Counted from the stretch's first letter, positions 9,426-44,722 are shown. The stretch: DNA of 64,000 bases from Anaerolineae bacterium (GCA_042408195.1 JBHOQL010000067.1:11579-75578); one strand, 5' to 3'. Program-made: numbers and translations. The notes: generated by a model not told the origin, from the letters alone.

Positions 9426-9440
9426 AGGCACCTCCCATTG

Positions 9441-20633: not shown

Positions 20634-23600
20634 ATGGAAAGAGTGCTGCTCAGGGTAAAGCTACTGCCCCCGCGTCTAACTAAACGAGTGCTGGTCCGCC
20701 CGCGCCTGATTCAGCAGCTTCTCGAGGCTCTAAATTACCGTTTGACCATCCTACAAGCAGGGGCTGGTTACGGCAAGAGCACAGCTCTGGCAACTTTGGC
20801 CGAACAGGGGATACCTATCGTCTGGTATCAGCTGGAGCGGGAAGACAGCGACCCAGCCCTTTTTCTTTTCTACCTCATCCACGGCTTTCGCTCCCTATTT
20901 CCCGATGGTTTCGAGCTTGCTTTGGCTTTCATCGAGGAGCATTCCGATCAGTTCCGTCCAACCCTGGTTCTAGATATATTGCTGGACGAATTAGCCAAAC
21001 GGATCACCTCTCCCCACTTCTTCGTCCTGGATGATGCTCACTTCCTGAGAGAATCCCCGGAGACCTTGCGGCTTCTGGACCGCTTCATCGCCCATTCACC
21101 ACCGGATCTACATACAATCCTTTCCACCCGCTACGCTCTCAATCTGCCTACTCTGATCCGTTGGAAAGCCCACGGAGAGGTTTTGGAGATCCGGCAGGAA
21201 GATTTAGCTTTTACCCCTGAGGAAATAAAAGCCCTTTTCCTTCGGAAATATCGGCTATTCCTTAGCCCGTCTGAGATCGCTTTGCTGGCTGAGCGGACCG
21301 AAGGGTGGCCCATTGCTCTTCAACTTGTCTGGAAGGCTCTGCAGAGCCGTATCACTCCGAACCTCTCCCGGGCCCTTGAGCAGGTAACTGGCCCTACTGA
21401 AAGTCTCTTCCTTTACCTGGCCCGTGAAGTTCTGGAGCAGCTAGAGCCGAGAGTACGGGATTTCCTCCTGAAGACGGCGGTTTTGCAGGAGTTATCGCCC
21501 TCCATTTGCGATTGCCTCTGCGAAACTACCGATAGCGTTTCCATCATCAATTATCTCATGGAAAATGGCCTTTTCATTGTGGACCTCGGGGAAGGCCTTT
21601 TCCGTTACCATCACTTGTTCAGGGAGTTCCTCTACCATCAACTCTCGCCCCAGGAGGCCAGAGAGGCTCATTTGCGGGCTGCCAAGTGTTTTACGAAGAT
21701 GGGTGATGAAGCCAAAGCTGTTCACCATTTCCTGGCTGCGCAGGCCTGGGAAGAGGCTGCCGCAATAATTGATAACTTGGGCCGGGATATGGTGCAGGCA
21801 GGCAGGCTTGAGACTCTTTCCCAGTGGCTTGGTATGATTCCGCCAGAAGTGCTGGCAGCTCATCCAGCGTTGTTAATCTACCTTGGGGACATAGCCCGCC
21901 TTCGGAGCCGTTTCCATGAAGCCCTTGGCTGGTATCAGCAGGCTGAAGAACGCTACCGTCTTAGAGGCGATAATCGGGGGGTTGGCCAGGCTCTGAGGGG
22001 AAAGGCCCGTGTCTATCTGGACACTGTGGATCCGGTCCAGGCGGAGCGATACCTCCAGGAGGCCCTTCGCCTTGCCGATGGGCAGGAGGACAGGGAGAGC
22101 TTTGCTCGCTTGCTGGAGCTCCTGGCAGAAAACCAGCTCAATCTGGGTCGTCCCGAGGAAGCAGAGCGATTGCGTGCACAGGCCCGTACTCTCCGAGAAG
22201 AGGGGCCGGGAGAGGCCGAATTGGCTGTCCGTGTGCTCCTGCGCACCGGCCGGCTCAACGAAGCTCGTCGCCTCTTGGAAGAGCAGGCAGAGAGGGAGCG
22301 TCGGGAACCTGTGCTCAGGCCCCGGGCCCACCGGGAAACCTTGCTCATCCTCTCCCTTGTGCTGGCTTTCCAGGGGGAGGCCGAAGCAGCTTACTATTGC
22401 GCTGTAGATGGCACAAAGCGGGGGCAGCTCCTCAATTCCCCCTTCGTTACTGCAGTGGGTTACATGAGACAGGGGCATTCCTGGCTCATAAGAGACGACC
22501 CAGATGGATATTCTCAGGCATGTCGTTGCTATCAGGAAGCCATAGCCATAAGTGAGGACCTTGCCGTCCCGCGCTTAAAGGTGGAAGCCTTCTGGGGACT
22601 TTGTCGAGCTCATGGCTTCAATGGGGAGTTGGATGCTGCTCTAGAAGCGGCTCACAAGGGGATAGAAATTGCCCAGCGGGCTGGAGATGAATGGATAACC
22701 GCACTGATCAGGGTCTCCATGGGGGCAGGGTATGTCCTGGCCGGTGAGTACAACTTAGCTGTAGATTGGCTTTCCCGAGCTCTAAATTCCTTTAGGGAAT
22801 GCAGTGACCCATACGGGGAGGCTGTTGCCAGGTTATGGCTCTGTCTAACGTGGTGGCGTAAGAAAGACCAGGCCCGGTTGAGGCGGGATTCTGAGGAGCT
22901 TCTCAGTTTGGTTCACAGCCACGGCTACGATTACCTTTTCACCAGAAGGACGCTCTTGGGACCTCCTGATCCCCGCATGGCGGTCCCAATACTGCTTTAT
23001 GCCCGTGACTCTGGCCTTCATCCCGCATGTGTGGATCGTCTCCTCAAGTCCTTGGGACTGGAGAAGACGGAAGTCCACCCGGGTTACCAGCTTAGGGTAC
23101 AAACCCTTGGGCCGTTCAGGGTTTGGCGGGGAACAAAGGAAATTTCTCCATCGGAATGGCGCCGTGAGAAAGCTCGGAGGCTCTTTCAAGTCTTAATAAC
23201 TTACCGGCGCACTATGCTAGATCGGGACCAGATTCTGGAAATGCTCTGGCCCGACCTGGACCCCGAAACAGCCAAACGGGATTTCAAAGTAGCTCTCAGC
23301 ACCCTGTGCAAAGTCCTGGAGCCTGAGCGTCAGGAAGGGATGCCTTCGGCTTACATAATTCGGGATCGTTCCCGGTACGGACTCAGACCAGGGGCCGACA
23401 TTTGGCTGGATGTGGAAGAGATGGAAAAAGAGATAACCAGTGGGGACAAGCTCCTAAACTTAGAGCCCGATAAAGCCCTGGAGCACTATAAGCGTGCGCT
23501 TGTCCTTTACGGTGGGGACTACCTGGAAGATTGCCTTTACGAATCTTGGTGCAGCGAGGAAAGGGAGAGAATTCTGATCCTCTACCTTCGCACAGCTGAG

Positions 23601-23858
23601 AGAGTAGCAGAGCTTCTGGCCCGTAAGGAAGTATGGGATGAGGTTCTTAACGTTTGCCGGGCCATTTTAGCTCGGGATCCTTGCTGGGAGCAAGCTTACC
23701 GCTGGATGATGCTGGCCTATGCCCGCACTGGCCGTAGGGCTCAGGCCTTGAAAACCTATAGGAAATGCGTGGAGCGGCTCCGCAAAGAGCTCCAAGTAGA
23801 CCCCTCCCCTGCCACCGTTCAGCTATACGAAGAAATCCGCAACGCCCGCCTTCAGTAA
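20634..23858 (+). CDS. Large transcriptional regulator. It has an N-terminal STAND/MalT-like P-loop ATPase, central TPR-like helical repeats, and a C-terminal OmpR-type winged helix plus BTAD (SARP/DnrI/AfsR-family activator domain).
   Basis: 1074 aa. The P-loop is QAGAGYGKST. The C-terminus LRVQTLGPFRVWRGTKEISPSEWRREKARRLFQVLITYRR...DQILEMLWPD has the SARP DNA-binding signature, followed by a BTAD helical region (...AYARTGRRAQALKTYRKCVERLRKELQVDPSPAT). Confidence 0.8.
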   Translation: MERVLLRVKLLPPRLTKRVLVRPRLIQQLLEALNYRLTILQAGAGYGKSTALATLAEQGIPIVWYQLEREDSDPALFLFYLIHGFRSLFPDGFELALAFIEEHSDQFRPTLVLDILLDELAKRITSPHFFVLDDAHFLRESPETLRLLDRFIAHSPPDLHTILSTRYALNLPTLIRWKAHGEVLEIRQEDLAFTPEEIKALFLRKYRLFLSPSEIALLAERTEGWPIALQLVWKALQSRITPNLSRALEQVTGPTESLFLYLAREVLEQLEPRVRDFLLKTAVLQELSPSICDCLCETTDSVSIINYLMENGLFIVDLGEGLFRYHHLFREFLYHQLSPQEAREAHLRAAKCFTKMGDEAKAVHHFLAAQAWEEAAAIIDNLGRDMVQAGRLETLSQWLGMIPPEVLAAHPALLIYLGDIARLRSRFHEALGWYQQAEERYRLRGDNRGVGQALRGKARVYLDTVDPVQAERYLQEALRLADGQEDRESFARLLELLAENQLNLGRPEEAERLRAQARTLREEGPGEAELAVRVLLRTGRLNEARRLLEEQAERERREPVLRPRAHRETLLILSLVLAFQGEAEAAYYCAVDGTKRGQLLNSPFVTAVGYMRQGHSWLIRDDPDGYSQACRCYQEAIAISEDLAVPRLKVEAFWGLCRAHGFNGELDAALEAAHKGIEIAQRAGDEWITALIRVSMGAGYVLAGEYNLAVDWLSRALNSFRECSDPYGEAVARLWLCLTWWRKKDQARLRRDSEELLSLVHSHGYDYLFTRRTLLGPPDPRMAVPILLYARDSGLHPACVDRLLKSLGLEKTEVHPGYQLRVQTLGPFRVWRGTKEISPSEWRREKARRLFQVLITYRRTMLDRDQILEMLWPDLDPETAKRDFKVALSTLCKVLEPERQEGMPSAYIIRDRSRYGLRPGADIWLDVEEMEKEITSGDKLLNLEPDKALEHYKRALVLYGGDYLEDCLYESWCSEERERILILYLRTAERVAELLARKEVWDEVLNVCRAILARDPCWEQAYRWMMLAYARTGRRAQALKTYRKCVERLRKELQVDPSPATVQLYEEIRNARLQ

Positions 23859-23895
23859 CTACTTTGTAACTCTTTTGTAACCGTTTGGTTATAAA
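23855..23895 (+). promoter_or_regulatory. Candidate SARP-box promoter: three GTAAC-containing heptamers at 11-bp periodicity (23855, 23866, 23877), with the last repeat 8 bp upstream of a TATAAA -10 at 23890-23895
   Basis: Read from the sequence cAGTAACtacTTTGTAACtctTTTGTAACcgtttggtTATAAAat. The geometry (11-bp repeat phasing, 8-bp gap to the -10) is the established arrangement for SARP-activated promoters. A regulator with a SARP domain is encoded immediately upstream. Confidence 0.45.
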
Positions 23896-23929
23896 ATTTT
23901 TTCTGCTTACAAAGCAGAGGAGGTTAACC

Positions 23930-24694
23930 ATGCGGCTCAAGGACAGAGTCGCTCTCATCACAGGTGGAGCTGTGGGCATAGGCCAAGCTACAGCTTTCCG
24001 TTTCGCCGAAGAAGGTGCCATAGTTATAATCTGTGATGTGAACGAAGAAGCGGGCCGCCAGACTGCCGCTCAGCTTGGAGACGAAACCCGTTTCTACAAA
24101 GTAAACGTGGTTGACAGGAAAGCGGTCCAGGCCTGGGTGGACGATGTGGCTGCTCGCTTCGGCAGGATTGATATCCTCGTAAACAATGCCGGCATCCTGC
24201 GGGACGCCCTGCTGGTGAAGTACAAAGACGGCCAGGTAGTGGGTCAGATGTCTGAGGAAGATTTTGACCTGGTCATCGCTGTCAATCTCAAGGGAGTTTT
24301 CAACTGCACCCAGGCCGTCGTGCCCTACATGATACGGCAGGGCGGTGGAGTAATCCTCAATGCTTCCTCCGTTGTGGGAATAGATGGCAACTTCGGCCAG
24401 ACCAACTACGTGGCTTCAAAAGCTGGCGTCATCGGAATGACTAAAGTGTGGGCCAGGGAACTGGCAAGGTACAATATCCGGGTCAACGCTGTTGCCCCTG
24501 GTTTCATCCTAACCGATATGGTCCGCCAGATGCCGGAGAAAATCCTTGAGCAGATGAAAGCTCGCATCCCCTTGGGCCGCCTGGGGGATCCGAGAGATGT
24601 AGCCAACGCTTACCTCTTCCTGGCCTCTGATGAAGCCTCTTATATTACGGGAACCGTGCTTCGTGTAGATGGTGGCATCGTGGTGGGTACCTAA
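23930..24694 (+). CDS. Short-chain dehydrogenase/reductase, FabG-like 3-oxoacyl reductase
   Basis: The Rossmann motif is ITGGAVGIGQA. The catalytic motifs are NNAG and S...YVASK. I chose the internal ATG at 23930 with RBS GAGGAGG upstream. Confidence 0.85.
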   Translation: MRLKDRVALITGGAVGIGQATAFRFAEEGAIVIICDVNEEAGRQTAAQLGDETRFYKVNVVDRKAVQAWVDDVAARFGRIDILVNNAGILRDALLVKYKDGQVVGQMSEEDFDLVIAVNLKGVFNCTQAVVPYMIRQGGGVILNASSVVGIDGNFGQTNYVASKAGVIGMTKVWARELARYNIRVNAVAPGFILTDMVRQMPEKILEQMKARIPLGRLGDPRDVANAYLFLASDEASYITGTVLRVDGGIVVGT

Positions 24695-24705: not shown

Positions 24706-26232
24706 ATGATCGTTGGAGATTGGCTTGGACGTCGGGAGCTTCTGACCCCAAACAAAGTGGCTCTTATAGACACCCTCAACGGCAACCGCCCCATAACTTA
24801 CAGGGAATGGAGCCACATGGTCAACCGAACGGCTCGCTTCCTCCAAGAACGTCTCGGAGTGCGTAAGGGAGATCGGGTGGCCATACTGGCTCAGAACTGT
24901 GTGGAATATTTGGACCTGTGGTTCGCTTTGGGCCGCATTGGCGGTGTCATGCAGGCCCTGAACTGGCGCCTAACCCCTTACGAACTGGAGGGTCTCCTCA
25001 ACGATGGCAGACCAGTAGCTTTGGTTTACGGAAGCGAGTTCACCTCCCAAGTCAACGCTCTGCGGGGCAAAATTCCTAACCTACATTATTATGTAGCCCT
25101 AGGAGAAAAAGCTTCTCCGAATGATATCTCCTTCTCTGAGCGCGAATCTTTTCCCGACCACTCCCTTCCGGAAATAGACCTGGATTGGGAGGACCCATGG
25201 GTCATCTGCTATACCGGTGGCACAACCGGCTTGCCGAAAGGAGCCATATTGACCCATCGCTCTATCACTGCTAACGCCGTCAACACAGTTATCTCTTGGG
25301 GTCTCACCCCCGATGATGTGGCTATTCTCAACGCCCCTCTTTTCCATACCGGAGGCCTTAATGTATTCACTGCCCCCTTGGTTTACATCGGAGGCACTAG
25401 TATCGTTTGTAAGGGGTTTGATCCGGACCAGGTCTTCGATCTCATTAGAGATGCAGGGGTGACAGTGTTTTTCGGCGTTCCGACTATGTTTATCATGCTT
25501 CAGCAGCATCCTCGCTGGGAAGAGGCTGATTTTTCCCGCCTGAAGATTGTGATAAGCGGCGGAGCGCCCTGCCCAATGTCTGTGTTTGAAAAGTTCTTTG
25601 AGAAAGGCATCAATTTCAAAACGGGCTATGGTCTCACTGAAGCGGGTCCCAATACCTTCTGGCTTCCTCCGGAAGATGCGCGTCGCAAGCCTGGCTCTGT
25701 CGGTTTCCCCTTGTTCCACATCGATGTGAAGATAGTGCGAGAAGATGGGACTGAGTGTGGTCCGGAGGAGGTTGGAGAACTCATTATCCGTGGGCCCCAT
25801 GTCTGCGCCGGCTACTGGAACAACCCCGAAGCCACAGCTCAAACTTTTCGAGATGGATGGCTTCACACCGGCGACCTGGCCAAACGCGATGCCGAAGGCT
25901 ACTATTACATCGTTGGGCGGATAAAGGATATGTTCATCTCGGGAGGGGAAAACGTTTATCCCGCTGAAATTGAGAGCGTCCTCCACTCCCATCCGGCCGT
26001 AGTTGAGGCAGCGGTCATAGGAGTGCCCGACCCAAAGTGGGGAGAAGTAGGCCGAGCCATTGTAGCCCTTCGCCCCGGCGCTTCCGTGACCGAGGAAGAA
26101 CTCATAGCATTCTGTCGAGAGCGATTGGCAAGTTACAAAATTCCCAAATCCTTCATTTTCGTGGAAGCTCTACCCAAAACAGGGGCAGGCAAAGTGGACA
26201 AAGAACGTCTGAGGAAGGAATACGGCTCGTAG
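24706..26232 (+). CDS. AMP-dependent synthetase/ligase (acyl- or aryl-CoA ligase), paralog 1
   Basis: 508 aa. The ANL P-loop is YTGGTTGLPKG. The hinge and A8 region is GDLAKRDAEGYYYIVGRIKDMFISGGENVYP. It carries a C-terminal lysine motif. Confidence 0.85.
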   Translation: MIVGDWLGRRELLTPNKVALIDTLNGNRPITYREWSHMVNRTARFLQERLGVRKGDRVAILAQNCVEYLDLWFALGRIGGVMQALNWRLTPYELEGLLNDGRPVALVYGSEFTSQVNALRGKIPNLHYYVALGEKASPNDISFSERESFPDHSLPEIDLDWEDPWVICYTGGTTGLPKGAILTHRSITANAVNTVISWGLTPDDVAILNAPLFHTGGLNVFTAPLVYIGGTSIVCKGFDPDQVFDLIRDAGVTVFFGVPTMFIMLQQHPRWEEADFSRLKIVISGGAPCPMSVFEKFFEKGINFKTGYGLTEAGPNTFWLPPEDARRKPGSVGFPLFHIDVKIVREDGTECGPEEVGELIIRGPHVCAGYWNNPEATAQTFRDGWLHTGDLAKRDAEGYYYIVGRIKDMFISGGENVYPAEIESVLHSHPAVVEAAVIGVPDPKWGEVGRAIVALRPGASVTEEELIAFCRERLASYKIPKSFIFVEALPKTGAGKVDKERLRKEYGS

Positions 26233-26256: not shown

Positions 26257-27060
26257 ATGCCGAAAATGAAAGTGAATGATATAGAGATTGCTTATGAGGT
26301 GACCGGTTCCGGTCATCCGTTGGTTCTCATCACTGGCGTCGGATATGGACGCTGGTTCTGGCACAAAATCGTGCCTGAACTTTCCAAGCATTTTCAGGTG
26401 GTAACTTTTGATAACCGCGGAGCCGGTGAAAGCGATAAACCCCCCGGTCCTTACACCACAAAAATGATGGCGGCTGATACCGCCGGTCTCCTTGATGGCC
26501 TCGGTATCCGCAGAGCCTATGTAATGGGTCACTCTTTGGGTGGATTCATTGCGCAAGAGCTAACTCTTGCCAGACCTGACCTTGTTGAGAAATTGATTCT
26601 GGCTTCCACAACTTACGGTGGCCCCAACGTTATACCCATTACCCCAGAGGCCCTTGAAGTCCTCACTAAGAGGGATGGTGATCCTGTAGAACTGGTCCAC
26701 AGAGGAATCAAAGTGGCCTGTGCGCCAGGCTTCGCCGAGCGCCATCCGGAAGTGGTCAAAGAGCTTCTGGAGTACCGACTGACCAACCCTGTGCCTCCAG
26801 CTCAGTATCAAGCTCAGGTTATGGCCGGAGCTACCCACAACGCTGAGGACCGCATCTCTCAGATAACCTGTCCCGTGCTCGTGCTCTTTGGCGAGTACGA
26901 CAAGGTAGTCCCTCCCGGGAACGCGGAACTCTTGGCCCGGAAGCTCCCCAACGCTCGGGTCAAAATCCTCCCCAACGTGGGTCACATTTTCCCCATAGAA
27001 GACCCCCAAGCCACTGTGGAAGCGATGCTGGAATTTCTGAAGCCTGAGGAGGCTAAGTGA
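26257..27060 (+). CDS. Alpha/beta-hydrolase fold protein, paralog 1
   Basis: 267 aa. The nucleophile elbow is GHSLGG, with an HGxP-like oxyanion region and a C-terminal His (NVGHIFPIE). Confidence 0.8.
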   Translation: MPKMKVNDIEIAYEVTGSGHPLVLITGVGYGRWFWHKIVPELSKHFQVVTFDNRGAGESDKPPGPYTTKMMAADTAGLLDGLGIRRAYVMGHSLGGFIAQELTLARPDLVEKLILASTTYGGPNVIPITPEALEVLTKRDGDPVELVHRGIKVACAPGFAERHPEVVKELLEYRLTNPVPPAQYQAQVMAGATHNAEDRISQITCPVLVLFGEYDKVVPPGNAELLARKLPNARVKILPNVGHIFPIEDPQATVEAMLEFLKPEEAK

Positions 27061-28052
27061 TGCGTCACGCTCGCATTCTTGCCACTGGCAGTTATGTGCC
27101 CCCAAGGCTAATTACGAACGATGAGATAGACGAAATCCTTGGGGAGAAAACCAGCGATTGGCTCATAGAGAACGTAGGCATTCGACAGCGTCATTGGATG
27201 ACGCCCGAGCAGACCACTTCTGATTTGGTGGTGGAAGCCTCCAAGATAGCACTGGAACGAGCTGGCCTCCGGCCTGAAGACTTGGATCTCATCATCGTGT
27301 CTACCGACACTCCCGATTACCTTTCTCCTCCTACCTCGGCAGTAGTCCAGTACAAGCTGGGGGCAGTCAATGCTGGTTGCTGGGATGTGAACAGTGCCTG
27401 CGCAGGGTGGGTGACAGCCTTGGACCAGGGAGCCCGCTACATTATGACTGAGCCGACAATCCGATACGTCCTAGTGGCCGGTGGCTACGGTATGAGCCGC
27501 TTCCTGGACCTCAAGGACAAGAAAACCGCCAACCTCTTTGCCGATGGTGCGGGGGCGGTAGTGTTGGGTCCCAGTGAGGGACCCGGATTCTTGGCAAGCC
27601 AATTCCTGGCCAAAGGTGAATACTACGATGCTCTGGGCATCTACACCGGTGGCGCTTTTCGGCCCTGTACCCCGGAGAACCTGGAAAAATACGGTCCACC
27701 GCGAGTCCAATTCGTCAAGAAATTCCCCCGCACCTTCAACACGGAATACTGGCCTTGGCTGATTCAGAAAGCTCTGGAAAAGGCAGGGCTTACAGTAGAA
27801 GATGTGGATCTTTTCCTCTTCACACAGCTCAACTTGCGCACTATTGAACTGATGATGCAAATCCTCGGTCAATCTATGGAGAAAACCCATTGGGTCATGG
27901 ACAAGTGGGGCTATACAGGCTCACCCTGTGTGGCGATGGCACTGGATGATTTAATCAACCAGGGACGTGGGCCAAAACCAGGCGATATAATCGTCTTCTG
28001 CACCAGCGGCGGGGGCATAACGATGGCTGCCTCTGTCTGGCGGTGGGTATGA
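27057..28052 (+). CDS. FabH-like (KAS III / thiolase-fold) condensing-enzyme homolog with a non-canonical active site
   Basis: 331 aa. It aligns by eye along its length with E. coli FabH, and the Cys nucleophile is retained (VNSACAGW versus AAACAGF). At the positions of FabH His244 and Asn274 the residues appear to be Thr (FTQLNLR versus PHQANLR) and Tyr (KWGYTGSP versus RHGNTSAA). Confidence 0.75.
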   Translation: MMRHARILATGSYVPPRLITNDEIDEILGEKTSDWLIENVGIRQRHWMTPEQTTSDLVVEASKIALERAGLRPEDLDLIIVSTDTPDYLSPPTSAVVQYKLGAVNAGCWDVNSACAGWVTALDQGARYIMTEPTIRYVLVAGGYGMSRFLDLKDKKTANLFADGAGAVVLGPSEGPGFLASQFLAKGEYYDALGIYTGGAFRPCTPENLEKYGPPRVQFVKKFPRTFNTEYWPWLIQKALEKAGLTVEDVDLFLFTQLNLRTIELMMQILGQSMEKTHWVMDKWGYTGSPCVAMALDDLINQGRGPKPGDIIVFCTSGGGITMAASVWRWV

Positions 28053-28065
28053 GGAGGAGATCCAT

Positions 28066-29616
28066 ATGTATGTCGGCGATTACCTTGGCCGAAGAGCTAT
28101 CTACAGTCCTGAAAAGGTAGCCGTAGTAGATTACGGCAAGCAACCGCCTTGGCGCCTCACTTACCGCCAAATGAATGAGCGTGCTAATCGTTTCGCCAAC
28201 TGGTTGCGGAACGTAGCCGGAATTCGCAAGGGCGATCGAGTCGCCATTCTGGCTCGGGATGGGGTAGAGCATCTGGATTGCTTCTTTGCCTGCTCCAAAC
28301 TGGGAGCTATCCACACTGCCCTGAACTGGCGCCTCCACTGGCGGGAGCTTGTAGAGATAATCCGCAAAACTACCCCTACTGTCCTTATCTACTCCGACGA
28401 CTTCAAGGATAACGTTTTCCAACTCAGGGAGGCGATAAAAGGTACGGATTACGCTATTCTCTACTACCTCCACATAGAAGGCGAAGGTGTGGAGGGGAGC
28501 CTTCACTTTGAAACCATATTGCAGAGCAGCCCTTCAGACCCTGTCACTTGCGAAGAGGTGGAAGCCGAAGATATTGTGGCCCTTATTTTCACCGGAGGCA
28601 CCACTGGTTTCCCCAAGGCTGCCCAAGTTTCCCACCGGATGATAGCCTGGAACACTCTTAACACTGTCATCCATGACTTAACCCATAACGATGTTTACTT
28701 GAATGTATTTCCAATGTTCCACACCGGAGGCCTTTTCGTTTACACCCTTCCCCAAATAATCATGGGCGGCACCACGATCTTGATCCGTCAGTTTGACCCG
28801 GCTCTTGTGCTCCGGCTAATAGAGCAAGAAAAGGTCACAGTTTTTGCTGCCGTGCCCACCATGTATCAGATGATGACCCAAGCCCCCAACTGGGAGGAAG
28901 CTGATCTCTCTTCCCTCAGGTTCTGCACCAGCGGTGGAGCCCCTCTACCGGTCCCGCTTATAGAGAAATACACCCGTGAGAAAGGAGTACGTTTCAAGCA
29001 AGGCTTCGGTATGACAGAATTCGGGCCGGGCATTTTTGCCCTAGCTCCGGAGGATGCCGTCCGTAAGGCCGGTTCCATTGGTCGTCCCAACTTCTTCATA
29101 GACGCCCGCATCGTTGACGACGAGAACCGCCCTCTGGGTCCCAACCAGATAGGGGAGTTAGTGCTCAGAGGCCCTTCCATTTGCTCTGGCTACTTCGGTG
29201 ACCCTGAAGCCACAGCCGGGATGCTGGATGAAGAGGGTTGGTTCCACACTGGCGACTTAGCCTACTACGATGAGGAGTGGTATTTCTACATTGTGGACCG
29301 TAAAAAGGATATGTTCATCTCTGGAGGGGAAAATGTCTACCCCGTGGAGATAGAGAAAGCCCTTTACGAGCACCCTGCCGTGCACATGTGCGCCGTCATC
29401 GGTGTGCCGGATCCCAAATGGGGGGAGGTCGGACTAGCCTGCGTTGTCCTGAAGCCTGGGATGACGGCTACCGAGGAAGAGCTCATAGCTTTTCTGAAAG
29501 AGCGCTTGGCCAGCTACAAAGTCCCTAAGCGTGTAGTCTTCATGGAGAGCTTGCCCATTTCTGCGGCAGGCAAAATCCTGAAGAGAGAACTGCGCAAGCA
29601 GTTCGTGGGAGGATAA
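28066..29616 (+). CDS. AMP-dependent synthetase/ligase, paralog 2
   Basis: 516 aa. The P-loop is FTGGTTGFPKA. DLAYYDEEWYFYIVDRKKDMFISGGENVYP is shared with the other two paralogs. Confidence 0.85.
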   Translation: MYVGDYLGRRAIYSPEKVAVVDYGKQPPWRLTYRQMNERANRFANWLRNVAGIRKGDRVAILARDGVEHLDCFFACSKLGAIHTALNWRLHWRELVEIIRKTTPTVLIYSDDFKDNVFQLREAIKGTDYAILYYLHIEGEGVEGSLHFETILQSSPSDPVTCEEVEAEDIVALIFTGGTTGFPKAAQVSHRMIAWNTLNTVIHDLTHNDVYLNVFPMFHTGGLFVYTLPQIIMGGTTILIRQFDPALVLRLIEQEKVTVFAAVPTMYQMMTQAPNWEEADLSSLRFCTSGGAPLPVPLIEKYTREKGVRFKQGFGMTEFGPGIFALAPEDAVRKAGSIGRPNFFIDARIVDDENRPLGPNQIGELVLRGPSICSGYFGDPEATAGMLDEEGWFHTGDLAYYDEEWYFYIVDRKKDMFISGGENVYPVEIEKALYEHPAVHMCAVIGVPDPKWGEVGLACVVLKPGMTATEEELIAFLKERLASYKVPKRVVFMESLPISAAGKILKRELRKQFVGG

Positions 29617-29627: not shown

Positions 29628-30689
29628 ATGGCTGAAATCTACCACCTTGAAGGAATTACTTCCAGGATGATTCAGACTCCGCGGCTCAGAATGCATGTGC
29701 TTACCGCTGGGCTGGAGGAAGGCATTCCGGTTGTGTTCATCCACGGCAATGGCTCGTCCTCCACCTTCTGGGAGGAAACAATGCTGGCTCTACCGCCCGC
29801 TTTCCGAGGCATAGCTCCTGATATGAGGGGTTATGGCGAGACAGAGCCGTTGCCAATAGATGCCACGCTGGGCCTGAGCGACATGGTGGAGGACCTTCGC
29901 TCTCTGGTGGAAACAATTGGCCTGAAGAAATTCCACCTCGTCGGCCATTCCATGGGTGGCGGTATTGCGATGAAATATGCCATCGCTTATCCTGACGATC
30001 TTCTCTCCATAACGCTGGTGGATACAATGTCTCCATATGGCTACAGCGGAAGCAAAGATTTGAATGGAACGCCTTGCTACGAGGATGGTGCTCCCGCAGG
30101 GGCGGGGAGCGTCAACCCCGAATTCATCCGTCTCCTCAGGGAAAAGGATAGAGGAACCGATAACCCAATGTCTCCCCGCAACGTGCTGCGCCACTTCTAC
30201 TTCAAGCCTCCGTTCGTCCCCAAGCGAGAAGAAGACCTTCTCACGGCCATGCTTTCCATGCAAGTGGGCGAAGATTGGTACCCTGGCGATTTTGTTCCCT
30301 CCCCCAATTGGCCCGGAGTCGCCCCTGGAAAGCGCGGCGTAATAAATGCTATCAGCCGAAAGTATTTTGATGCCAGCGGCATTGTTGACATTCAGCCCAA
30401 ACCGCCAATCCTCTGGATCCGCGGGGCTGATGATCTGGTGGTTTCCAACAGCGCCATGTGGGATGTTGCAACTTTAGGGGCTTTGGGATTCGTCCCGGGA
30501 TGGCCTGGCCCCGAGCATTGTCCTCCCCAGCCAATGCTGGACCAGATACGTGCTGTGTTGGAGCGATACAAGGCCAACGGTGGCTATTACCGGGAGGAAG
30601 TCATCCCTGATTGTGGCCACACTCCGTTCATAGAGAAACCCGAAGAGTTTAACGCCCTCTTTCACGAGTTCCTGCTGAAGGGAGGATAG
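29628..30689 (+). CDS. Alpha/beta-hydrolase fold protein, paralog 2 (larger, 353 aa, with an extended cap)
   Basis: The HGNGSS oxyanion region and the nucleophile elbow GHSMGG are present. A C-terminal His sits in CGHTPF. Confidence 0.75.
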   Translation: MAEIYHLEGITSRMIQTPRLRMHVLTAGLEEGIPVVFIHGNGSSSTFWEETMLALPPAFRGIAPDMRGYGETEPLPIDATLGLSDMVEDLRSLVETIGLKKFHLVGHSMGGGIAMKYAIAYPDDLLSITLVDTMSPYGYSGSKDLNGTPCYEDGAPAGAGSVNPEFIRLLREKDRGTDNPMSPRNVLRHFYFKPPFVPKREEDLLTAMLSMQVGEDWYPGDFVPSPNWPGVAPGKRGVINAISRKYFDASGIVDIQPKPPILWIRGADDLVVSNSAMWDVATLGALGFVPGWPGPEHCPPQPMLDQIRAVLERYKANGGYYREEVIPDCGHTPFIEKPEEFNALFHEFLLKGG

Positions 30690-30692: not shown

Positions 30693-32216
30693 ATGTACAC
30701 CTTTGACTGGTTAGCCAAAAGGGCGGAGCTCTCGCCCAACAAGATTGCCCTCATAGATGTCGCTACAGGGCGCGAGTGGACCTATGCCCAATTTAACGAG
30801 CGCGCTAGCCGCTTTGCCGAATTCCTCAGGGACGAGTGGAAAATAAAAGAAGGCGAACGGGTGGCTATCTTAGCCTACAACTCCTCCGATTACTTTGAAG
30901 TCCTCTACGGCTGTGCCAAGGTGGGGGTGATATTGGTCTGCCTCAACTGGCGGCTGGCCCTCCCGGAACTAGAGGTGATAGTCAACGATGCTTCACCCCG
31001 CGCCCTCATTTACGATCCCGATTTCACCGAGGCTGCCCATTACCTCAAGGAGCGCACTACGGCTACCCTTCTTATGACTCTGGGAGAAAAAGCTCCTAAA
31101 GGTGAATGGGCGTACGAGAAAGCCCTCGCCGAGGCAAGTGGTCAGCCCATCGTCATGCCTCCGCGAGCTTTGAGCGATGTCTGGCATCTCCTTTACACTG
31201 CCGGCACCACAGGGCGCCCAAAAGGCGTAATCCAGACCTTCGGGATGGTCTTCTACAATGCCGTAAACATTGGAATTGCCATCGATCTGACCTCAGAGGA
31301 CGTGACCCTGAACGTCCTCCCCACTTTCCACACCGGTGGCCTTAACCTCTACGCAAACCCGACTTTCCACGTAGGTGGCACTGCTATAATCCAAAAGTCC
31401 TTTGACCCTGGAGAGACCCTGCGCCTTCTCTCCGAAAAGGCCACAGCCTTTTTCGGAGTGCCTGCAATGTATCTGTTTATGAGCCAACACCCGGATTTTG
31501 ACAAATACGACCTTTCTCGAGTCCGCTCCTGGGCCTGTGGCGGTGCTCCGATGCCTGTTCACCTCCTTCGCTGGTATGCCGAGCGGGGCATTATCATCCA
31601 ACAGGGCTTCGGCATGACCGAGACTGGTCCCACTGTCTTCCTAATTGACAAAGAGCACGCGATCTCCAAAGCGGGCTCCGTGGGCAAGCCCCAGATGCAT
31701 GTGGCGGTGCGCATCGTGGACCGGGAAGGACGAGATGTTCCACCCGGAGAAGTCGGAGAGCTGTGGATAAAGGGGCCCGGTGTTACCCCAGGCTACTGGC
31801 AGCAGCCGGAAATAACTGCTGAGTCCTTCACTGATGGATGGCTTCACTCCGGTGACCTGGCCAGAGTGGACGAGGATGGATACTACTACATTGTGGACCG
31901 CCTGAAGGACATGTACATCTCTGGCGGGGAAAACGTTTACCCAGCTGAGGTTGAGAATGTCCTCTACCAAATGGAACAGATAGCGGAAGTGGCGGTTATA
32001 GGCGTGCCGGATCCCAAATGGGGCGAGGTGGGTAAAGCCATCGTGGTTGTGAAGCCCGGCTACACCCTGACTGAGGAGGAAGTGATTCGCTTCTGCGAGG
32101 GAAAGATCGCTCGCTACAAAATCCCGAAACATGTGGTCTTCGTGGACAGGCTCCCTCGCAATCCTGCTGGCAAAGTTCTTAAGACGGAACTTCGTAAGAG
32201 GTTTGGTGGGGCATGA
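30693..32216 (+). CDS. AMP-dependent synthetase/ligase, paralog 3
   Basis: 507 aa. The P-loop is YTAGTTGRPKG, with GDLARVDEDGYYYIVDRLKDMYISGGENVYP. Confidence 0.85.
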   Translation: MYTFDWLAKRAELSPNKIALIDVATGREWTYAQFNERASRFAEFLRDEWKIKEGERVAILAYNSSDYFEVLYGCAKVGVILVCLNWRLALPELEVIVNDASPRALIYDPDFTEAAHYLKERTTATLLMTLGEKAPKGEWAYEKALAEASGQPIVMPPRALSDVWHLLYTAGTTGRPKGVIQTFGMVFYNAVNIGIAIDLTSEDVTLNVLPTFHTGGLNLYANPTFHVGGTAIIQKSFDPGETLRLLSEKATAFFGVPAMYLFMSQHPDFDKYDLSRVRSWACGGAPMPVHLLRWYAERGIIIQQGFGMTETGPTVFLIDKEHAISKAGSVGKPQMHVAVRIVDREGRDVPPGEVGELWIKGPGVTPGYWQQPEITAESFTDGWLHSGDLARVDEDGYYYIVDRLKDMYISGGENVYPAEVENVLYQMEQIAEVAVIGVPDPKWGEVGKAIVVVKPGYTLTEEEVIRFCEGKIARYKIPKHVVFVDRLPRNPAGKVLKTELRKRFGGA

Positions 32217-33088
32217 AATTGGAAATAGGCCAGAAGGCTTCCTTCAAACGCCGGCTTACTCAGGAGGATTTCACCCGTTTCGCCCTTTTGAGCGGGGATA
32301 ATAATCCTATTCACACCGACCCGGAATTCTCTGCTCGGACCCGGTTCGGAAGACCAGTGGCTCATGGAGCCTTTCTCTTCGGGCTCATCTCTTCAGCCAC
32401 GAACAACCTCTTGCCAGGCCCTGGTTTACTTCTATATCAGGAACTCATGTTCCCAACCCCCTCCTATGCCGGAGAGGAAATAACGGTGCAGGTGGAAATC
32501 ACTGCTGTAAACCGCGAAAAGAACCAAGCTGAACTTTCAACTCTCATCATTCGGCCTAATGGAGAGCTCGGATGCCAGGGCCTGGCCCTCGTCCACTTCG
32601 GACTAGCGAATGGGTGGCCTCAAGTGGACAGGGAAATCCCGCCGCCATTGCCCAGCGAGGGCTCCATTCTTAAAGGATTCCGGCTGGGGGAGAGCGCTTA
32701 TCTCCAGAGAACTTTTACACTCGAAGATGTGCGGACGTACATTGAACTAACCGGTGATGCCAACCCCGTCTACACCGATGCTGAACTGGCCTCTGAGTTG
32801 GGATTGGACTCCCCCGTGCTTCCGCCGCCCCTTGTGGGGGCGCTATTCTCCTGCCTTCTCGGTGTACATCTGCCAGGCTGGGGCACGAATTACCTTAAGC
32901 AGCGCTTTATCTTCCTGGAGCCTGCTCACCCAGGCGAAGAACTCACAGCCAGGGTGGAGATCGTGCGCTTGCGTCCAGAGAAAGAACTCATAAACCTCCG
33001 CACCATCTGCCAGAAAACAGACGGAAAAACCATCGCCGATGGCGAAGCACTGGTGCTGGTGCGGGATGTAAAGGCAAGGGAAACCTAA
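32213..33088 (+). CDS. MaoC-like double-hotdog (R)-specific enoyl-CoA hydratase/dehydratase
   Basis: The N-terminal hotdog has the catalytic signature GDNNPIHTD...RPVAHG. The second hotdog has a degenerate GDANPVYTD (His replaced by Tyr), as in structural-cap hotdogs. Confidence 0.75.
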   Translation: MKLEIGQKASFKRRLTQEDFTRFALLSGDNNPIHTDPEFSARTRFGRPVAHGAFLFGLISSATNNLLPGPGLLLYQELMFPTPSYAGEEITVQVEITAVNREKNQAELSTLIIRPNGELGCQGLALVHFGLANGWPQVDREIPPPLPSEGSILKGFRLGESAYLQRTFTLEDVRTYIELTGDANPVYTDAELASELGLDSPVLPPPLVGALFSCLLGVHLPGWGTNYLKQRFIFLEPAHPGEELTARVEIVRLRPEKELINLRTICQKTDGKTIADGEALVLVRDVKARET

Positions 33089-33897
33089 TGCCGAAGGTAG
33101 AGGTTAACGGCATCCAACTTTACTATGAACTGCACGGCCCGAAAGAGGCCGAAGTCTTGGTGCTCTCCAATGGAATCATCATGAGCACTGCCGGATGGGT
33201 CTTCCAGACCCGCGAGCTGTCCAAGCATTACCGGCTGCTGCTCTACGATTGCCGGGGAATGTGGCAATCGGACCATCCTCCAGGCCCTTACTCCATGGAG
33301 CAGCATGCCGATGACCTGGCTGGCCTGCTGGATGCCCTCGGAATCGAGAAAGCCCATATCGGTGGCATCTCCTATGGGGGTGAAATAAGCATGACTTTCG
33401 CCCTCCGCTATCCGGAGCGAACTCTGAGCCTGATTGTGGCCGATTCCGTTAGCTACGTGGATCAATGGCTGCGAACCATAGTGGAAGGCTGGATCGCAAT
33501 AGCCCGCGCTAAGGATCCCAAAGCCTTCTTCTGCGCCACCGTTCCCTGGAACTTTTCCCCCCGCTTCATCCAGGAACACCCCGACCTTATGGCCCAAGCC
33601 CTTGAACGCTATGCCCTGCTGGACTACGATGCTTTCATAAGGCTTTGCGAATGCTTCCTCCGCCTGGACCTAACTGAAAAGCTAAAGGATATAACTGCTC
33701 CCACGTGCGTGATGGTTGGCGAGCATGATCTCCTTAAGGGAAGAAGGTATGCAGAGGAGATCGCTCGCCGGATTCCCGGGGCTGAACTTTACATAATACC
33801 AGGTGCTGGGCATGCTACCTGCTGGGAAAACTTTGAAGTTTTCAACGCCATCGTCCTCGGTTTCCTTGCCCGGCACCGCCAAACTAAACAAAACTGA
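33088..33897 (+). CDS. Alpha/beta-hydrolase fold protein, paralog 3
   Basis: 269 aa. The nucleophile elbow is GISYGG and a C-terminal His sits in GAGHATCWE. It is clearly paralogous to the 26257-27060 product (shared N-terminal MPKxxVNxIx and PGPY motifs). Confidence 0.8.
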   Translation: MPKVEVNGIQLYYELHGPKEAEVLVLSNGIIMSTAGWVFQTRELSKHYRLLLYDCRGMWQSDHPPGPYSMEQHADDLAGLLDALGIEKAHIGGISYGGEISMTFALRYPERTLSLIVADSVSYVDQWLRTIVEGWIAIARAKDPKAFFCATVPWNFSPRFIQEHPDLMAQALERYALLDYDAFIRLCECFLRLDLTEKLKDITAPTCVMVGEHDLLKGRRYAEEIARRIPGAELYIIPGAGHATCWENFEVFNAIVLGFLARHRQTKQN

Positions 33898-33908: not shown

Positions 33909-35255
33909 ATGCGTAACAAAAACTTGGTGGGGCTTGCTGTAGCTCTCATCGCAGGGCTGTCGCTGGTGCTGGCCTCGTGCAAGCCGGCTCCAACTCCTAC
34001 GCCTACTCCTGTCCCGCCAACCCCGACTCCTACACCTGCGCCTGCCCCCAGCCCCACGCCGACAGCTCCCCAGTATCCGTTCGCCGGGAAGCCCCTGAAG
34101 ATAGGTCTCCTGACCGATAACTCTGGGCCGCTGGCCATTTACGGGCCAATGTTGGAGAGGGGCTTTGAGCTCGGCCTGGAATACGCCACCAACGGCACAA
34201 TGGAAGTAGCCGGAAGGCCCATCAAAGTGATCATCAAAGATACTTCCAGCGACCCCGAGAAAGGCGTCAGTCAAGCACGTGAGCTTATTGAGGCCGAAGG
34301 GGTAGAAATACTGGTAGGGCCTCCCAGTTCTGGCGTCGCCATGGCCGTTCAGAAGATCGCTGAAGAATACAAAGTTATCTTAATTGTCGAACCGGCCGCC
34401 GCTACCGACATAACCGGCAAGAACTTCAACCCTTACACCTTCCGCACCAGCCGGACTTCTTACCAGGATGCTATTGTAATGGGCCAAGGCTTGCTGCAAT
34501 TGGGCAAAACCTTCGTCCAAATCGCTCCGGACTACGCTTTTGGCTGGGCTTCGGCCTGCGGCTTCTATGCTGTGATAAAGGCTGGCGGGGGTACTTTCCC
34601 CGTCAACGATACACCTCAGGGCTGCGGTGCCATCTTCATCCCCTTTGACACAACTGACTTCACCCCTTACCTCCAGCAGGTTCTGGACTCCGGGGCGGAA
34701 GTGCTCATCATAACTTGGGCTGGCGCGGGCTTCGTACCTCTCTTTAAGCAAATGCAGGAGCTGGGTGTCTTTGACAAAATGGTCGTCGGGACTGGCATCG
34801 GCGACAACCAGACCCTGGCGGCAGGCTACGCCAATGCCGTCGGCTCCACTGGAATTATTGTCTACCATTACACCCTCCCCAAGAACCCCGTCAATGACTG
34901 GTTGGTCAAGCGCCACAAGGAGAAATACGGGACTCCGCCAGACCTCTTCACCGCCGGTGGTATGGCTGCTGCCATCATGGTTGTGGAAGGGCTGAAGCGC
35001 ACGAACGGCGATGCCAGTGCAGATGCGCTCATCAAGGTCTACGAGGATAACTTCTCTTTTGATGGTCCCAACGGCAAATACATAATCCGGCCGTACGACC
35101 ACGTCTGTCTCTACCCGCTCTACTATGTCCGCTTGACCAACGTCACCGACCCCGAGTTCAGGTTCGTGGAACTGATCAAGGAGTTCGCTCCTGAAGAGGC
35201 AGCGCCGCCGTGCCTGCTGCCGGACCAGTACAAGGATCGCTGCCCCAAGGAGTAA
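33909..35255 (+). CDS. ABC transporter substrate-binding lipoprotein, LivJ/branched-chain-amino-acid-binding family (periplasmic-binding-protein type I)
   Basis: 448 aa. It has a lipoprotein signal (LVLASC) followed by a Pro/Thr-rich linker (PTPTPTPVPPTPTPTPAPAPSPTPT), then a Leu/Ile/Val-BP-like fold. Confidence 0.75.
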   Translation: MRNKNLVGLAVALIAGLSLVLASCKPAPTPTPTPVPPTPTPTPAPAPSPTPTAPQYPFAGKPLKIGLLTDNSGPLAIYGPMLERGFELGLEYATNGTMEVAGRPIKVIIKDTSSDPEKGVSQARELIEAEGVEILVGPPSSGVAMAVQKIAEEYKVILIVEPAAATDITGKNFNPYTFRTSRTSYQDAIVMGQGLLQLGKTFVQIAPDYAFGWASACGFYAVIKAGGGTFPVNDTPQGCGAIFIPFDTTDFTPYLQQVLDSGAEVLIITWAGAGFVPLFKQMQELGVFDKMVVGTGIGDNQTLAAGYANAVGSTGIIVYHYTLPKNPVNDWLVKRHKEKYGTPPDLFTAGGMAAAIMVVEGLKRTNGDASADALIKVYEDNFSFDGPNGKYIIRPYDHVCLYPLYYVRLTNVTDPEFRFVELIKEFAPEEAAPPCLLPDQYKDRCPKE

Positions 35256-35315
35256 CCCAGCGAAACCCGCGGGGGAGGAGGGGACTCCTCCCCCGCCACC
35301 TTCGGAGGACCGCAT

Positions 35316-36789: not shown

Positions 36790-36800
36790 GAGGGATTATA

Positions 36801-38294: not shown

Positions 38295-38298
38295 TGCC

Positions 38299-39927: not shown

Positions 39928-39931
39928 AATT

Positions 39932-40947: not shown

Positions 40948-40962
40948 CGGAGGAAAAGACTC

Positions 40963-43202: not shown

Positions 43203-43218
43203 AGGCGAGGGATGGAAA

Positions 43219-43743: not shown

Positions 43744-43759
43744 CTTTGGGGGTAGCATT

Positions 43760-44248: not shown

Positions 44249-44251
44249 GAA

Positions 44252-44560: not shown

Positions 44561-44722
44561 GGTGGAAAGAGGAGAAGTACTCGGTAGGCTCAGGGAGTTT
44601 CTGGAGCGGGGGGAAGGGATAATTTTTGCTTATCCCTTGAGGTGTTCAGCTTTGCCTGTGAGGATTTGGGCGATTTTGAGGCCTTTTTGCAATTTATGAG
44701 CACTCTTTTAAGGAGGCAGTGA

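Follow-up and report, generated by a model that had tools for sequence, protein, structure and literature searches.

Results

A FabH-like gene in an importer-linked operon

The window analyzed here is a stretch of 64,000 nucleotides from an Anaerolineae bacterium (GCA_042408195.1, JBHOQL010000067.1:11579-75578), and its gene of interest lies on the plus strand at 27057-28052. The product has the fold of FabH, also called beta-ketoacyl-ACP synthase III (KAS III; ACP, acyl carrier protein), but carries Cys, Thr and Tyr at the positions of the FabH catalytic residues Cys, His and Asn; we refer to this protein, and to relatives sharing the three residues, as CTY. The gene was delineated by an open reading frame (ORF) scan and by matches to Pfam ACP_syn_III (2.1e-20) and ACP_syn_III_C (3e-22), and its fold by AlphaFold2 and Foldseek, while database homologues are named only "ketoacyl-ACP synthase III (family protein)". 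The frame encodes 331 amino acids from a GTG at 27057, but an ATG at 27060 is the likelier start as read from the sequence, because a Shine-Dalgarno element, GAGGAGG (27046-27052, plus strand), stands 7 nucleotides 5′ of that ATG, at optimal spacing. The resulting 330 amino acids are also the length of most CTY homologues in the close 90%-identity clusters. The TGA stop of the upstream esterase gene (27058-27060) shares bases with the same ATG (TGATG), which suggests translational coupling. The product is therefore probably a 330-residue protein, coupled in its translation to the esterase. Residue numbers refer throughout to the 331-residue GTG form.

The CTY gene is the fifth of thirteen closely packed plus-strand genes behind a large STAND-type regulator with AAA, TPR and BTAD domains (20634-23858, plus strand), which lies directly upstream of the operon; a STAND/BTAD regulator also stands 5′ of the operon in Chloroflexota relatives. 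The operon opens with a FabG-like classical short-chain dehydrogenase/reductase (SDR; 23885-24694), identified by Pfam and by the NCBIfam FabG model (297.7 against a cut-off of 296). Its ORF is listed from a TTG at 23885, although the likely start is an ATG at 23930 that follows a GAGGAGG, giving a 254-residue protein beginning MRLKDRVALITGG.... Its best-matching relatives in the PDB are the FabG homologues 4nbw (1.5e-92), 4nbu and 4nbv, and good scores were also obtained with 2et6, a (3R)-hydroxyacyl-CoA dehydrogenase from yeast MFE-2 (7.6e-65), and with BbsD. Strand beta2 of the SDR ends in Asp (IICD), a residue that in this position indicates a preference for NAD(H), and the enzyme is therefore probably NAD(H)-dependent.

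Between the SDR and CTY genes lie acyl-CoA ligase 1 (24706-26232), an ANL-family member of the PRK06187 subfamily by Pfam and NCBIfam, and the carboxylesterase-like serine alpha/beta-hydrolase 1 (26257-27060), which has a GHSLG elbow and whose stop overlaps the CTY start. The nearest kin of this esterase are the metagenomic carboxylesterases Est1 and Ade1 (PDB 6eb3/8v16, 2.7e-49), with an Alistipes feruloyl esterase further off. Downstream of CTY, on the same strand, are acyl-CoA ligase 2 (28066-29616), whose best match in the PDB is 8wev/8weu (6e-120), deposited as a feruloyl-CoA synthetase; serine alpha/beta-hydrolase 2, with a GHSMG elbow (29628-30689); acyl-CoA ligase 3 (30693-32216); a double hot-dog, MaoC-type (R-specific) enoyl-CoA hydratase (32213-33088); and serine alpha/beta-hydrolase 3, a PcaD/enol-lactonase-like protein with a GISYG elbow (33088-33897). 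The ligases score above the NCBIfam cut-off for the acyl-CoA ligase subfamily. Five genes for a Liv-type ABC importer complete the series (33909-39399, plus strand), encoding a binding protein (33909-35255), two ATPases (35316-36071 and 36058-36789) and two permeases (36801-38294 and 38299-39399). The top PDB matches of the binding protein are 3n0x/3nnd at about 1e-65, in output that names no ligand, and a literature search on PDB 8WEV, 3N0X and 4NBW found nothing on the substrates of those entries. The operon contains no second thiolase-superfamily gene, no acyl-CoA dehydrogenase and no DUF35 gene, and acpP, fabD and fabF are absent from the whole 64-kb window.

The catalytic His and Asn are replaced, not shifted

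The original prediction, made from the sequence by eye, was that the protein resembles E. coli FabH over its full length and keeps the Cys nucleophile (in VNSACAGW) but has Thr (in FTQLNLR) and Tyr (in KWGYTGSP) in place of His244 and Asn274. Each of these readings was borne out by formal alignment. In a phmmer search of all PDB sequences, E. coli FabH (1hn9) aligned over residues 4-328 at 4e-44, and the best match was the FabH of Burkholderia xenovorans (4dfe, 7e-50). In the phmmer alignments to PDB FabH chains, lFTQlNlR falls on pHQaNiR and GYTgsp on GNTsaa without gaps. MAFFT, run with an E. coli FabH sequence that corresponds end to end to 1hn9_A (1-317, 698 bits), likewise places Cys, Thr and Tyr at E. 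coli columns 112, 244 and 274. The residues concerned are Cys115 (codon 27399-27401), Thr256 (27822-27824) and Tyr286 (27912-27914), all encoded on the plus strand. We considered whether a different register could rescue the canonical triad, as would be the case if His and Asn were present but displaced. No shift restores the dyad, since both the HMMER and the MAFFT registers are anchored by Gln257, Asn259, Gly285 and Thr287.

Structure prediction is consistent with this assignment. The AlphaFold2 model has a mean predicted local distance difference test score of 95.2 and a predicted template modeling (TM) score of 0.93, and Foldseek aligned it to FabH 4dfe with a TM-score of 0.90. Compared with FabH, BioZ and ZhuH structures the model gave TM-scores of about 0.9 at 29-33% identity, and this structure comparison returned no solved family closer than these three. 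No solved structure with the CTY residue set was found among the PDB sequence or structure matches.

CTY proteins form a widespread clade

Similar proteins are numerous. The representatives of the 120 closest 90%-identity clusters, which are 77-93% identical to the query, were scanned for exact patterns: NSACAG was present in 119, FLFTQLN[LV]R in 91 and KWGYTG in 114, where the missing cases are failures of a strict pattern and the residues themselves were uninspected. Named members of this set come from metagenome-assembled genomes (MAGs) of Anaerolineae, Chloroflexi and Acetothermia/Bipolaricaulia. For more distant relatives, 1.8 billion proteins were searched at the level of 50%-identity clusters and the matches then aligned. 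Nineteen representatives, 36-73% identical to the query, have the Cys/Thr/Tyr set; 18 of them stand high in the match list and the nineteenth, P0212, lies amid canonical proteins, while the lower-ranked matches are almost all canonical Cys/His/Asn enzymes. Average-linkage clustering of the identity matrix separates 99 Cys/His/Asn proteins from the same 18, leaving P0212 as a divergent outlier.

A scan of the GTDB species representatives yielded 29 clade loci with 35 clade genes, tandem paralogues included, from about ten phyla. The hosts are Chloroflexota, Acidobacteriota, Bacteroidota, Gemmatimonadota, Caldiserica, KSB1, Elusimicrobia, Bdellovibrionota, Archangium, Competibacteraceae and Ectothiorhodospiraceae/Aquisalimonas, and the clade as a whole also takes in Acetothermia, myxobacteria and Gammaproteobacteria. 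Cultured carriers are Phaeodactylibacter luteus (KCTC 42180) and Rapidithrix thailandica (JCM 23209) among the Bacteroidota, and Aquisalimonas lutea (CECT 8326). All 35 genes encode Asp84, Cys115, Asn228, Thr256, Tyr286 and Ser317, and 32 of the 35 also encode Cys291. The more distant members are only 36-48% identical to the window protein, and the columns of the family alignment average 41% identity. Six residues that stay invariant across phyla at 36-48% identity speak for selection on a functional active site. Judged by these alignments, CTY proteins are a distinct, widespread and uncharacterized clade of KAS III-fold enzymes, and neither a one-off variant nor a sequencing error. Literature searches that covered atypical KAS III triads and FabH-like thiolytic enzymes found no description of the clade, and no NCBIfam model exceeds its own cut-off on the protein.

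At three loci CTY genes stand side by side as paralogous pairs whose products share about 40-48% identity with the query: L008 (327-2319), a metagenome contig, and L023 (8987-10990) and L025 (1004-3007), both from Caldiserica. Both copies at each locus have the full Asp-Cys-Asn-Thr-Tyr-Cys-Ser signature, and such pairs may reflect heterodimer formation or substrate specialization. Two rare signature variants were also seen among the 50%-cluster representatives, Cys-Asn-Tyr in P0133 and Ser-Pro-Tyr in P0176; these could be intermediates or further-diverged offshoots.

The active-site pocket has been rebuilt

The loss of two catalytic residues, on which the original prediction centered, is real but is only part of the change, which spans at least six co-varying pocket positions and defines the whole clade. 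Comparing the 19 CTY representatives with the 99 canonical ones, we defined a position as clade-distinctive if a single residue occurs in at least 80% of the clade and at most 15% of FabH. Ten positions qualify: Asp84, Gly194, Pro224, Asn228, Trp232, Thr256, Met281, Tyr286, Cys291 and Ser317 of the query, which occupy the E. coli FabH columns Thr81, Thr190, Val212, Ala216, Leu220, His244, Leu269, Asn274, Ser279 and Phe304, respectively. The His and Asn of FabH are invariant in all 99 canonical representatives, none of which has the Thr or the Tyr.

Asp84 (codon 27306-27308, plus strand, as are the codons that follow) aligns with Glu79 of HMG-CoA synthase (TDT against TES). Asn228 (27738-27740) sits in an F-x-K-K-x-P-x-x-x-N segment that replaces the M-x-G-x-x-V-F tunnel motif of FabH. 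Cys291 (27927-27929), five residues beyond Tyr286, is a second Cys that the clade conserves. Ser317 (28005-28007) lies two residues before the oxyanion-loop Gly, so that the loop reads SGGG instead of FGGG, and its position is one we take to be that of the thiolase acid/base residue Cys378 in the CxGGG motif. In addition, where FabH has Phe87, a residue that restricts the size of the primer, 15 of the 19 clade representatives have Ser.

The entrance of the FabH tunnel, with its CoA- and ACP-binding residues, is also remodeled. Trp32, Arg36, Arg151, Met207, Gly209, Ala246 and the ACP-docking Arg249 are each conserved in 79-96 of the 99 canonical proteins (Arg36 as Arg or Lys) and variable in the 19 clade representatives, although the window protein itself retains Trp35 and Arg261. 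All NCBIfam FabH models score below their cut-offs on the CTY protein (NF006829, 237.3 against 249; TIGR00747, 208.5 against 292.1; NF004623, 184.8 against 437). What is shared with FabH is the fold, both Pfam domains, the nucleophilic Cys, the Gly-rich loop that forms the backbone oxyanion hole, and the Gln and Asn of the HQxN motif. The retention of Cys and of the SGGG loop leads us to expect an acyl-S-Cys intermediate. As judged from the alignments, features needed for malonyl-ACP chemistry have been lost from the enzyme, and carboxylate and hydroxyl/amide side chains gained near the Cys.

Gene neighborhoods separate CTY from fatty acid synthesis

Neighbors were compared in one scan of the 29 clade loci, many of them on short contigs, and 53 canonical FabH loci; greedy ORF calls are unreliable in high-GC loci, as in locus L028, where two called "genes" have no Pfam matches. 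A CoA ligase accompanies CTY at 17 of the 29 loci and canonical FabH at 1 of 53, and the figures for a serine alpha/beta-hydrolase are 17/29 and 0/53. FabG-like SDRs occur beside both (17/29 and 28/53), those at canonical loci being the FabG of the fab cluster. The partners of fatty acid synthesis (FAS) show the reverse distribution, since acpP (25/53), fabD (29/53) and fabF (25/53) neighbor canonical genes and none of them is found at any clade locus. The MaoC gene is present in 3/29 clade loci. The most conserved partner of CTY is the SDR, mostly encoded directly upstream of it. Identity to the window SDR is 57-82% for copies in the same orientation, 40-45% for the three that are divergently oriented, and about 40-50% for the FabG proteins at canonical loci.

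These neighborhoods, together with the substandard NCBIfam scores and the unconserved CoA- and ACP-contacting residues, uphold the earlier suspicion that this is not a simple fatty-acid priming enzyme. The CTY protein is a KAS III relative by fold and ancestry, yet it fails the catalytic, score-threshold, partner-residue and genomic tests of a FabH.

The operon itself recurs in four metagenome contigs that bear a 93%-identical CTY homologue. In a close relative of the operon on a 1.57-Mb contig (JGI 3300042910; L002, 11017-13775), an insertion splits the gene for ligase 2 in two, bringing with it a transposase-like gene (DDE_Tnp_1_assoc) plus a further ORF on the opposite strand. An Acetothermia genome (GCA_029907235.1) preserves the core order of SDR, ligase, esterase, CTY and ligase, followed further on by an esterase and the ABC importer, with an SCP-x-type thiolase and a DUF35 protein in place of hydrolase 2, ligase 3 and MaoC. 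The CTY proteins of the Acetothermia genome and the Chloroflexota window are 85% identical, and this degree of identity suggests lateral transfer of the module between the two lineages. Further upstream in Acetothermia are another two thiolases along with a pair of DUF35 proteins and a MeaB-like GTPase; these genes and the replacement lie at 1-3862 and 12596-14288 of L005/L006.

Three kinds of importer flank the module in different phyla, namely a Liv ABC system, an SSF symporter and a TonB-dependent receptor, and the presence of these different types argues for catabolism of an imported compound. In Phaeodactylibacter luteus (L019, 12639-13817), the genes run in the order TonB-dependent receptor, CTY, CoA ligase and a 392-residue protein with a BioD/AAA_26-type domain, with no SDR within 10 kb.

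Relation to characterized enzymes of the superfamily

Several known families share individual features with CTY. HMG-CoA synthase (HMGCS) is, as proposed for CTY, an acyl-Cys enzyme of the thiolase superfamily that works without decarboxylation; its Glu79 is the general base that forms the acetyl-Cys enolate and later activates water. Aligned by hhalign with the Enterococcus faecalis enzyme MvaS (a sequence identical to 1X9E_A), the clade gave a probability of 96.6% and placed Asp84 (T-D-T) on Glu79 (T-E-S), a correspondence that is alignment-based and in which CTY has Asp, not Glu. As aligned, an acid lies 31-32 residues before the Cys in each, and a YTGS sequence follows the Asn/Tyr position. 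However, the similarity is detectable in the N-terminal half only, the C-terminal domain of CTY being of the FabH type and lacking an equivalent of His233, and HMGCS models score far below threshold on the protein (NF003274, 59.4 against 244; TIGR00748, 42.7 against 353). In a Chloroflexota MAG, a second and very different KAS-like gene (L026, 5448-6515; 25% identity) lies about 4 kb upstream of CTY. Its product has Glu at the Asp84 column, shows E-C-S-I-H-D-A across the seven signature positions and may be related to HMGCS in type.

ChlB3, CerJ, DpsC and PqsBC resemble CTY in combining a FabH fold with departures from Cys-His-Asn chemistry and with acyl-Cys or acyl-Ser intermediates. They are nevertheless distant (phmmer, ChlB3 5e-13 and PqsC 1e-14) and belong to antibiotic or signal biosynthesis clusters. 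These KAS III-like acyltransferases keep their His, as Cys/Ser-His-Asp or, in PqsC, as Cys-His. Set against the Cys/Ser-His-Asp triad of such enzymes (PMC9573744), the CTY protein has no His at the His244 column.

OleA of Xanthomonas campestris (3row) is KAS III-like and non-decarboxylative, uses a carboxylate base, and is encoded, like CTY, near SDR, ANL and alpha/beta-hydrolase genes. In the Ole pathway OleA keeps both His and Asn, OleB has an Asp nucleophile, OleC is a beta-lactone synthetase and OleD an extended SDR. The neighbors of CTY are of other subtypes (Ser hydrolases, a classical FabG-like SDR and CoA-ligase subfamily members), with importers adjacent. We rejected membership of CTY in the OleA family, because OleA chains match at 3e-12 to 1e-10 as against 7e-50 for FabH, His and Asn are absent, and the three hydrolases have Ser elbows.

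The steroid side-chain aldolases Ltp2 and Sal likewise have repurposed thiolase-fold sites acting on CoA thioesters, with MaoC and DUF35 partners (PMC12329534), but they belong to the SCP-x thiolase branch, have no nucleophilic Cys and show no sequence-level kinship to the FabH branch. An analogy to PhlA or to the archaeal HMGCS-thiolase-DUF35 complex was rejected as a general explanation, since PhlA has Gly at the position of the nucleophilic Cys (PMC6392133) and genes of the types of its obligate partners, PhlC (thiolase) and PhlB (DUF35), occur together at a minority of loci, the window not among them.

Discussion

A candidate thiolase-like step in a putative acid-degrading module

What the analysis shows is a residue pattern and how well it is conserved, a fold, a set of neighboring genes and a lack of FAS partners. 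From these we infer an acyl-CoA donor and a thiolase-like reaction, as well as the direction of that reaction and its substrate class, with a confidence that falls from enzyme type to reaction to substrate. We consider it reasonably probable that CTY is a non-decarboxylative, CoA-dependent acyl-Cys enzyme that operates outside FAS. In KAS III the His and Asn promote decarboxylation of the malonyl group and stabilize the resulting enolate, and the non-decarboxylative part of the chemistry first proposed for this protein is plausible in view of the acid found at the general-base position of HMGCS. The more specific proposal, that CTY is thiolase-like and makes or cleaves a 3-oxoacyl-CoA handled by the adjacent dehydrogenase, we advance tentatively. 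The module in the window has the esterases, CoA ligases, R-specific hydratase and R-type dehydrogenase that would be needed to take an imported ester or acid to a 3-oxoacyl-CoA, and it holds no other thiolase-superfamily gene; we therefore propose CTY for the step that cleaves or forms the carbon-carbon bond.

Under this proposal, an acyl-CoA produced by the adjacent CoA ligase would acylate Cys115, or Cys115 would attack a 3-oxo group. Polarization of the oxygen of the thioester or enolate would fall to the Tyr286 and Thr256 hydroxyls, and Asp84 would serve as general base or acid toward the alpha-proton, perhaps together with Ser317 or Cys291. The enzyme would then cleave (or form) the 3-oxoacyl-CoA that the FabG-like dehydrogenase produces (or consumes). 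Within this operon, CTY would supply the missing thiolase step of an R-specific beta-oxidation set derived from FAS-II, in which three esterases, three CoA ligases, the MaoC hydratase, the FabG-like dehydrogenase and CTY are served by the Liv-type importer, and the module would break down a carboxylic acid, or esters of one, taken up from outside.

That the set includes no acyl-CoA dehydrogenase would make sense for substrates that were already alpha,beta-unsaturated, as in cinnamate-type acids, or 3-hydroxylated. Hydroxycinnamate-type or 3-hydroxy acids are accordingly the leading guesses, although as a specific assignment this is speculative and on balance unlikely. In its logic, a module of FabH-like, FabG-like and MaoC proteins would be analogous to the fungal peroxisomal MFE-2 route. 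Aspergillus niger is reported to use peroxisomal CoA-dependent beta-oxidative genes for hydroxycinnamates (PMC8140964). Furthermore, Tyr, or Tyr with Cys, serves in acid/base catalysis in the thiolase-fold carbon-carbon lyases Ltp2 and Sal (PMC12329534).

Thiolases proper, with their Cys-His-Cys site, would share with CTY a non-decarboxylative Claisen or retro-Claisen reaction of CoA esters through an acyl-Cys, and they too have hydratase, dehydrogenase and ligase neighbors. They form, however, a separate branch of the superfamily (Pfam Thiolase_N scores 22.1 bits on CTY against a cut-off of 26.4), and the CTY loop is SGGG, not CxGGG.

Several observations weigh against a thiolase-like CTY. 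The thiolase catalytic positions hold His and Cys where CTY has Tyr and Ser, in columns that we take to correspond to His348 and Cys378. Thr, Tyr and Asp could be equally suited to acyl transfer or hydrolysis, and Asp84, Asn228 and Ser317 are placed near Cys115 by homology. The SCP-x-type thiolase and DUF35 pair found in Acetothermia also occurs at about four or five other loci, the latter recognized by ORF size only, and at such loci CTY as a second thiolase would be partly redundant. In an Ectothiorhodospiraceae MAG (L034, 4123-18947), CTY has neither ligase nor SDR nearby and stands among central-metabolism genes, with pyruvate dehydrogenase E1-E2-E3 on one side and, on the other, a 1607-residue NAD-glutamate dehydrogenase, an alpha/beta-hydrolase and a malic enzyme/PTA fusion. 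This context argues that the enzyme is not bound to one peripheral substrate, and it may act on a central CoA ester. Aquisalimonas lutea (L028, at about 10001) also lacks the ligase and SDR and has a hydrolase-like ORF nearby and a 1613-residue ORF at the position of the glutamate dehydrogenase, which is a resemblance only, as these neighbors are unannotated. Finally, the substrate assignment is weak, drawn as it is from family-level similarities.

Alternative readings

The strongest competitor is an acyltransferase or thioesterase, in which Cys115, acylated by an acyl-CoA, would hand the acyl group on to an acceptor (hydroxyl, amine or water) activated by Asp84 or Tyr286, in the service of ester remodeling or CoA recycling. 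Reactions of this type are those of the KAS III-like acyltransferases CerJ, ChlB3 and DpsC. The retained Cys and oxyanion loop, the missing decarboxylation dyad, a carboxylate where HMGCS also activates water, an acyl pocket opened by the change of Phe87 to Ser, and the close coupling of the CTY gene to serine esterases and CoA ligases would all fit such an activity. Yet the known KAS III-like acyltransferases retain the His base that CTY lacks, ChlB3 is distant, and the operon already holds three dedicated hydrolases. Moreover, a FabG-like 3-oxo/3-hydroxyacyl dehydrogenase as the most conserved neighbor suggests beta-keto chemistry in preference to simple acyl transfer. We therefore regard an acyltransferase or thioesterase as rather unlikely.

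Two further schemes are less likely still, and equally improbable. One is an Ole-like biosynthesis, in which CTY would perform a head-to-head Claisen condensation of two acyl-CoAs and the SDR, ANL and hydrolase proteins would act as OleD, OleC and OleB to yield beta-hydroxy acids, beta-lactones or olefins. Head-to-head chemistry was among the outcomes first predicted for this protein, the four OleABCD superfamilies are indeed co-located in most clade loci, and the acidic general base gained by CTY recalls Glu117 of OleA. The details of those partners speak otherwise. OleA structures match at 3e-12 against 7e-50 for FabH and OleA keeps its His and Asn, the hydrolase elbows have Ser and not the Asp nucleophile of OleB, and the SDR is of the classical FabG and not the extended OleD type. 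The ligases, in addition, exceed the cut-off of the acyl-CoA ligase subfamily, and the flanking transporters are importers, not exporters. The similarity values and the Ser elbows in particular lead us to disfavor this part of the original prediction.

The other scheme retains decarboxylation, with Tyr286 and Thr256 replacing His and Asn, so that the acyl-CoA made by the ligase would be extended with malonyl-CoA and then reduced by the SDR. True FabH enzymes are the nearest relatives in sequence and fold, the order of a FabH-like and then a FabG-like gene is reminiscent of FAS-II, and Tyr hydroxyls stabilize thioester enolates elsewhere, for example in FabI. Indeed, the Thr and Tyr hydroxyls could in principle stabilize an enolate, which tempers any conclusion that the enzyme is non-decarboxylative. 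Nevertheless, no ACP, FabD or malonyl-supplying gene is present in the 29 loci or in the window, the ACP-docking Arg249 and the CoA-adenine residues are unconserved, and the dyad that would have been replaced is invariant in every canonical representative. An SDR that is probably of the NAD(H) type suggests oxidation, and the surrounding genes are for uptake and ester hydrolysis.

An aldol-type enzyme is highly improbable. It would be either a retro-aldolase that, like Ltp2 and Sal, acts on a 3-hydroxyacyl-CoA after the MaoC step, or an HMGCS-like catalyst of aldol addition from an acyl-Cys enolate. The alignment of Asp84 with Glu79 and the common YTGS motif recall HMGCS, and MaoC, or thiolase plus DUF35, are frequent neighbors. 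Tyr and Tyr/Cys pairs catalyze retro-aldol cleavage in thiolase-fold enzymes (PMC12329534). Conversely, Ltp2 and Sal need no nucleophilic Cys whereas Cys115 is invariant, the HMGCS His233 has no equivalent and HMGCS models reach only 59 against a cut-off of 244, and MaoC occurs at 3/29 loci as against 17/29 for the SDR. A catalytically dead scaffold that supports a partner enzyme in the manner of PhlA or PqsB, for which the lost dyad and the tandem paralogues at some loci might be cited, is extremely improbable, because PhlA lacks the Cys altogether (PMC6392133) whereas in CTY the Cys and five other residues of the pocket do not vary from phylum to phylum, and the full signature is present in each member of the tandem pairs.

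Implications

Whatever its reaction, the name "ketoacyl-ACP synthase III" is very probably wrong for the whole CTY clade. If the enzyme is thiolase-like or otherwise non-decarboxylative, it would be a new solution to enolate chemistry in a well-studied superfamily, metabolic reconstructions of abundant uncultured fermenters such as Anaerolineae and Bipolaricaulia would be corrected, and a malonyl-independent scaffold for carbon-carbon bond formation would be available for engineering. In the fullest version of the thiolase-like proposal, which we hold to be doubtful, CTY would be a new catalytic class within the thiolase superfamily, derived from FabH and performing thiolase-type (non-decarboxylative Claisen or retro-Claisen) chemistry through Asp84, Thr256, Tyr286, Ser317 and Asn228 instead of His/Asn or His/Cys, and would complete, with a FabG-like NAD(H) dehydrogenase and MaoC, an R-specific beta-oxidation module, drawn from folds of fatty acid synthesis, by which many uncultured anaerobes degrade imported acids and esters. 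The conserved SDR-ligase-esterase-CTY module with its importers also suggests a catabolic route, so far undescribed, that acts on an acid or ester from the environment.

Other genes in the window

Directly 3′ of the operon is a complex I (nuo) gene set (39893-49807) with homologues of NuoB, NuoC, NuoD and NuoH and three Proton_antipo_M subunits. Beyond it, the minus strand (51867-56753) encodes a CobT-type phosphoribosyltransferase, an asparagine-synthase-like protein and a Peripla_BP_2/ABC system of the cobalamin or siderophore type. Toward the other end of the window, also on the minus strand (394-9455), lies a mannoside-type sugar utilization cluster comprising GH4 and GH130 (the mannooligosaccharide phosphorylase family) genes, those for an Opp-type ABC transporter, whose binding protein is of the SBP_bac_5 family, and one for a LacI regulator.

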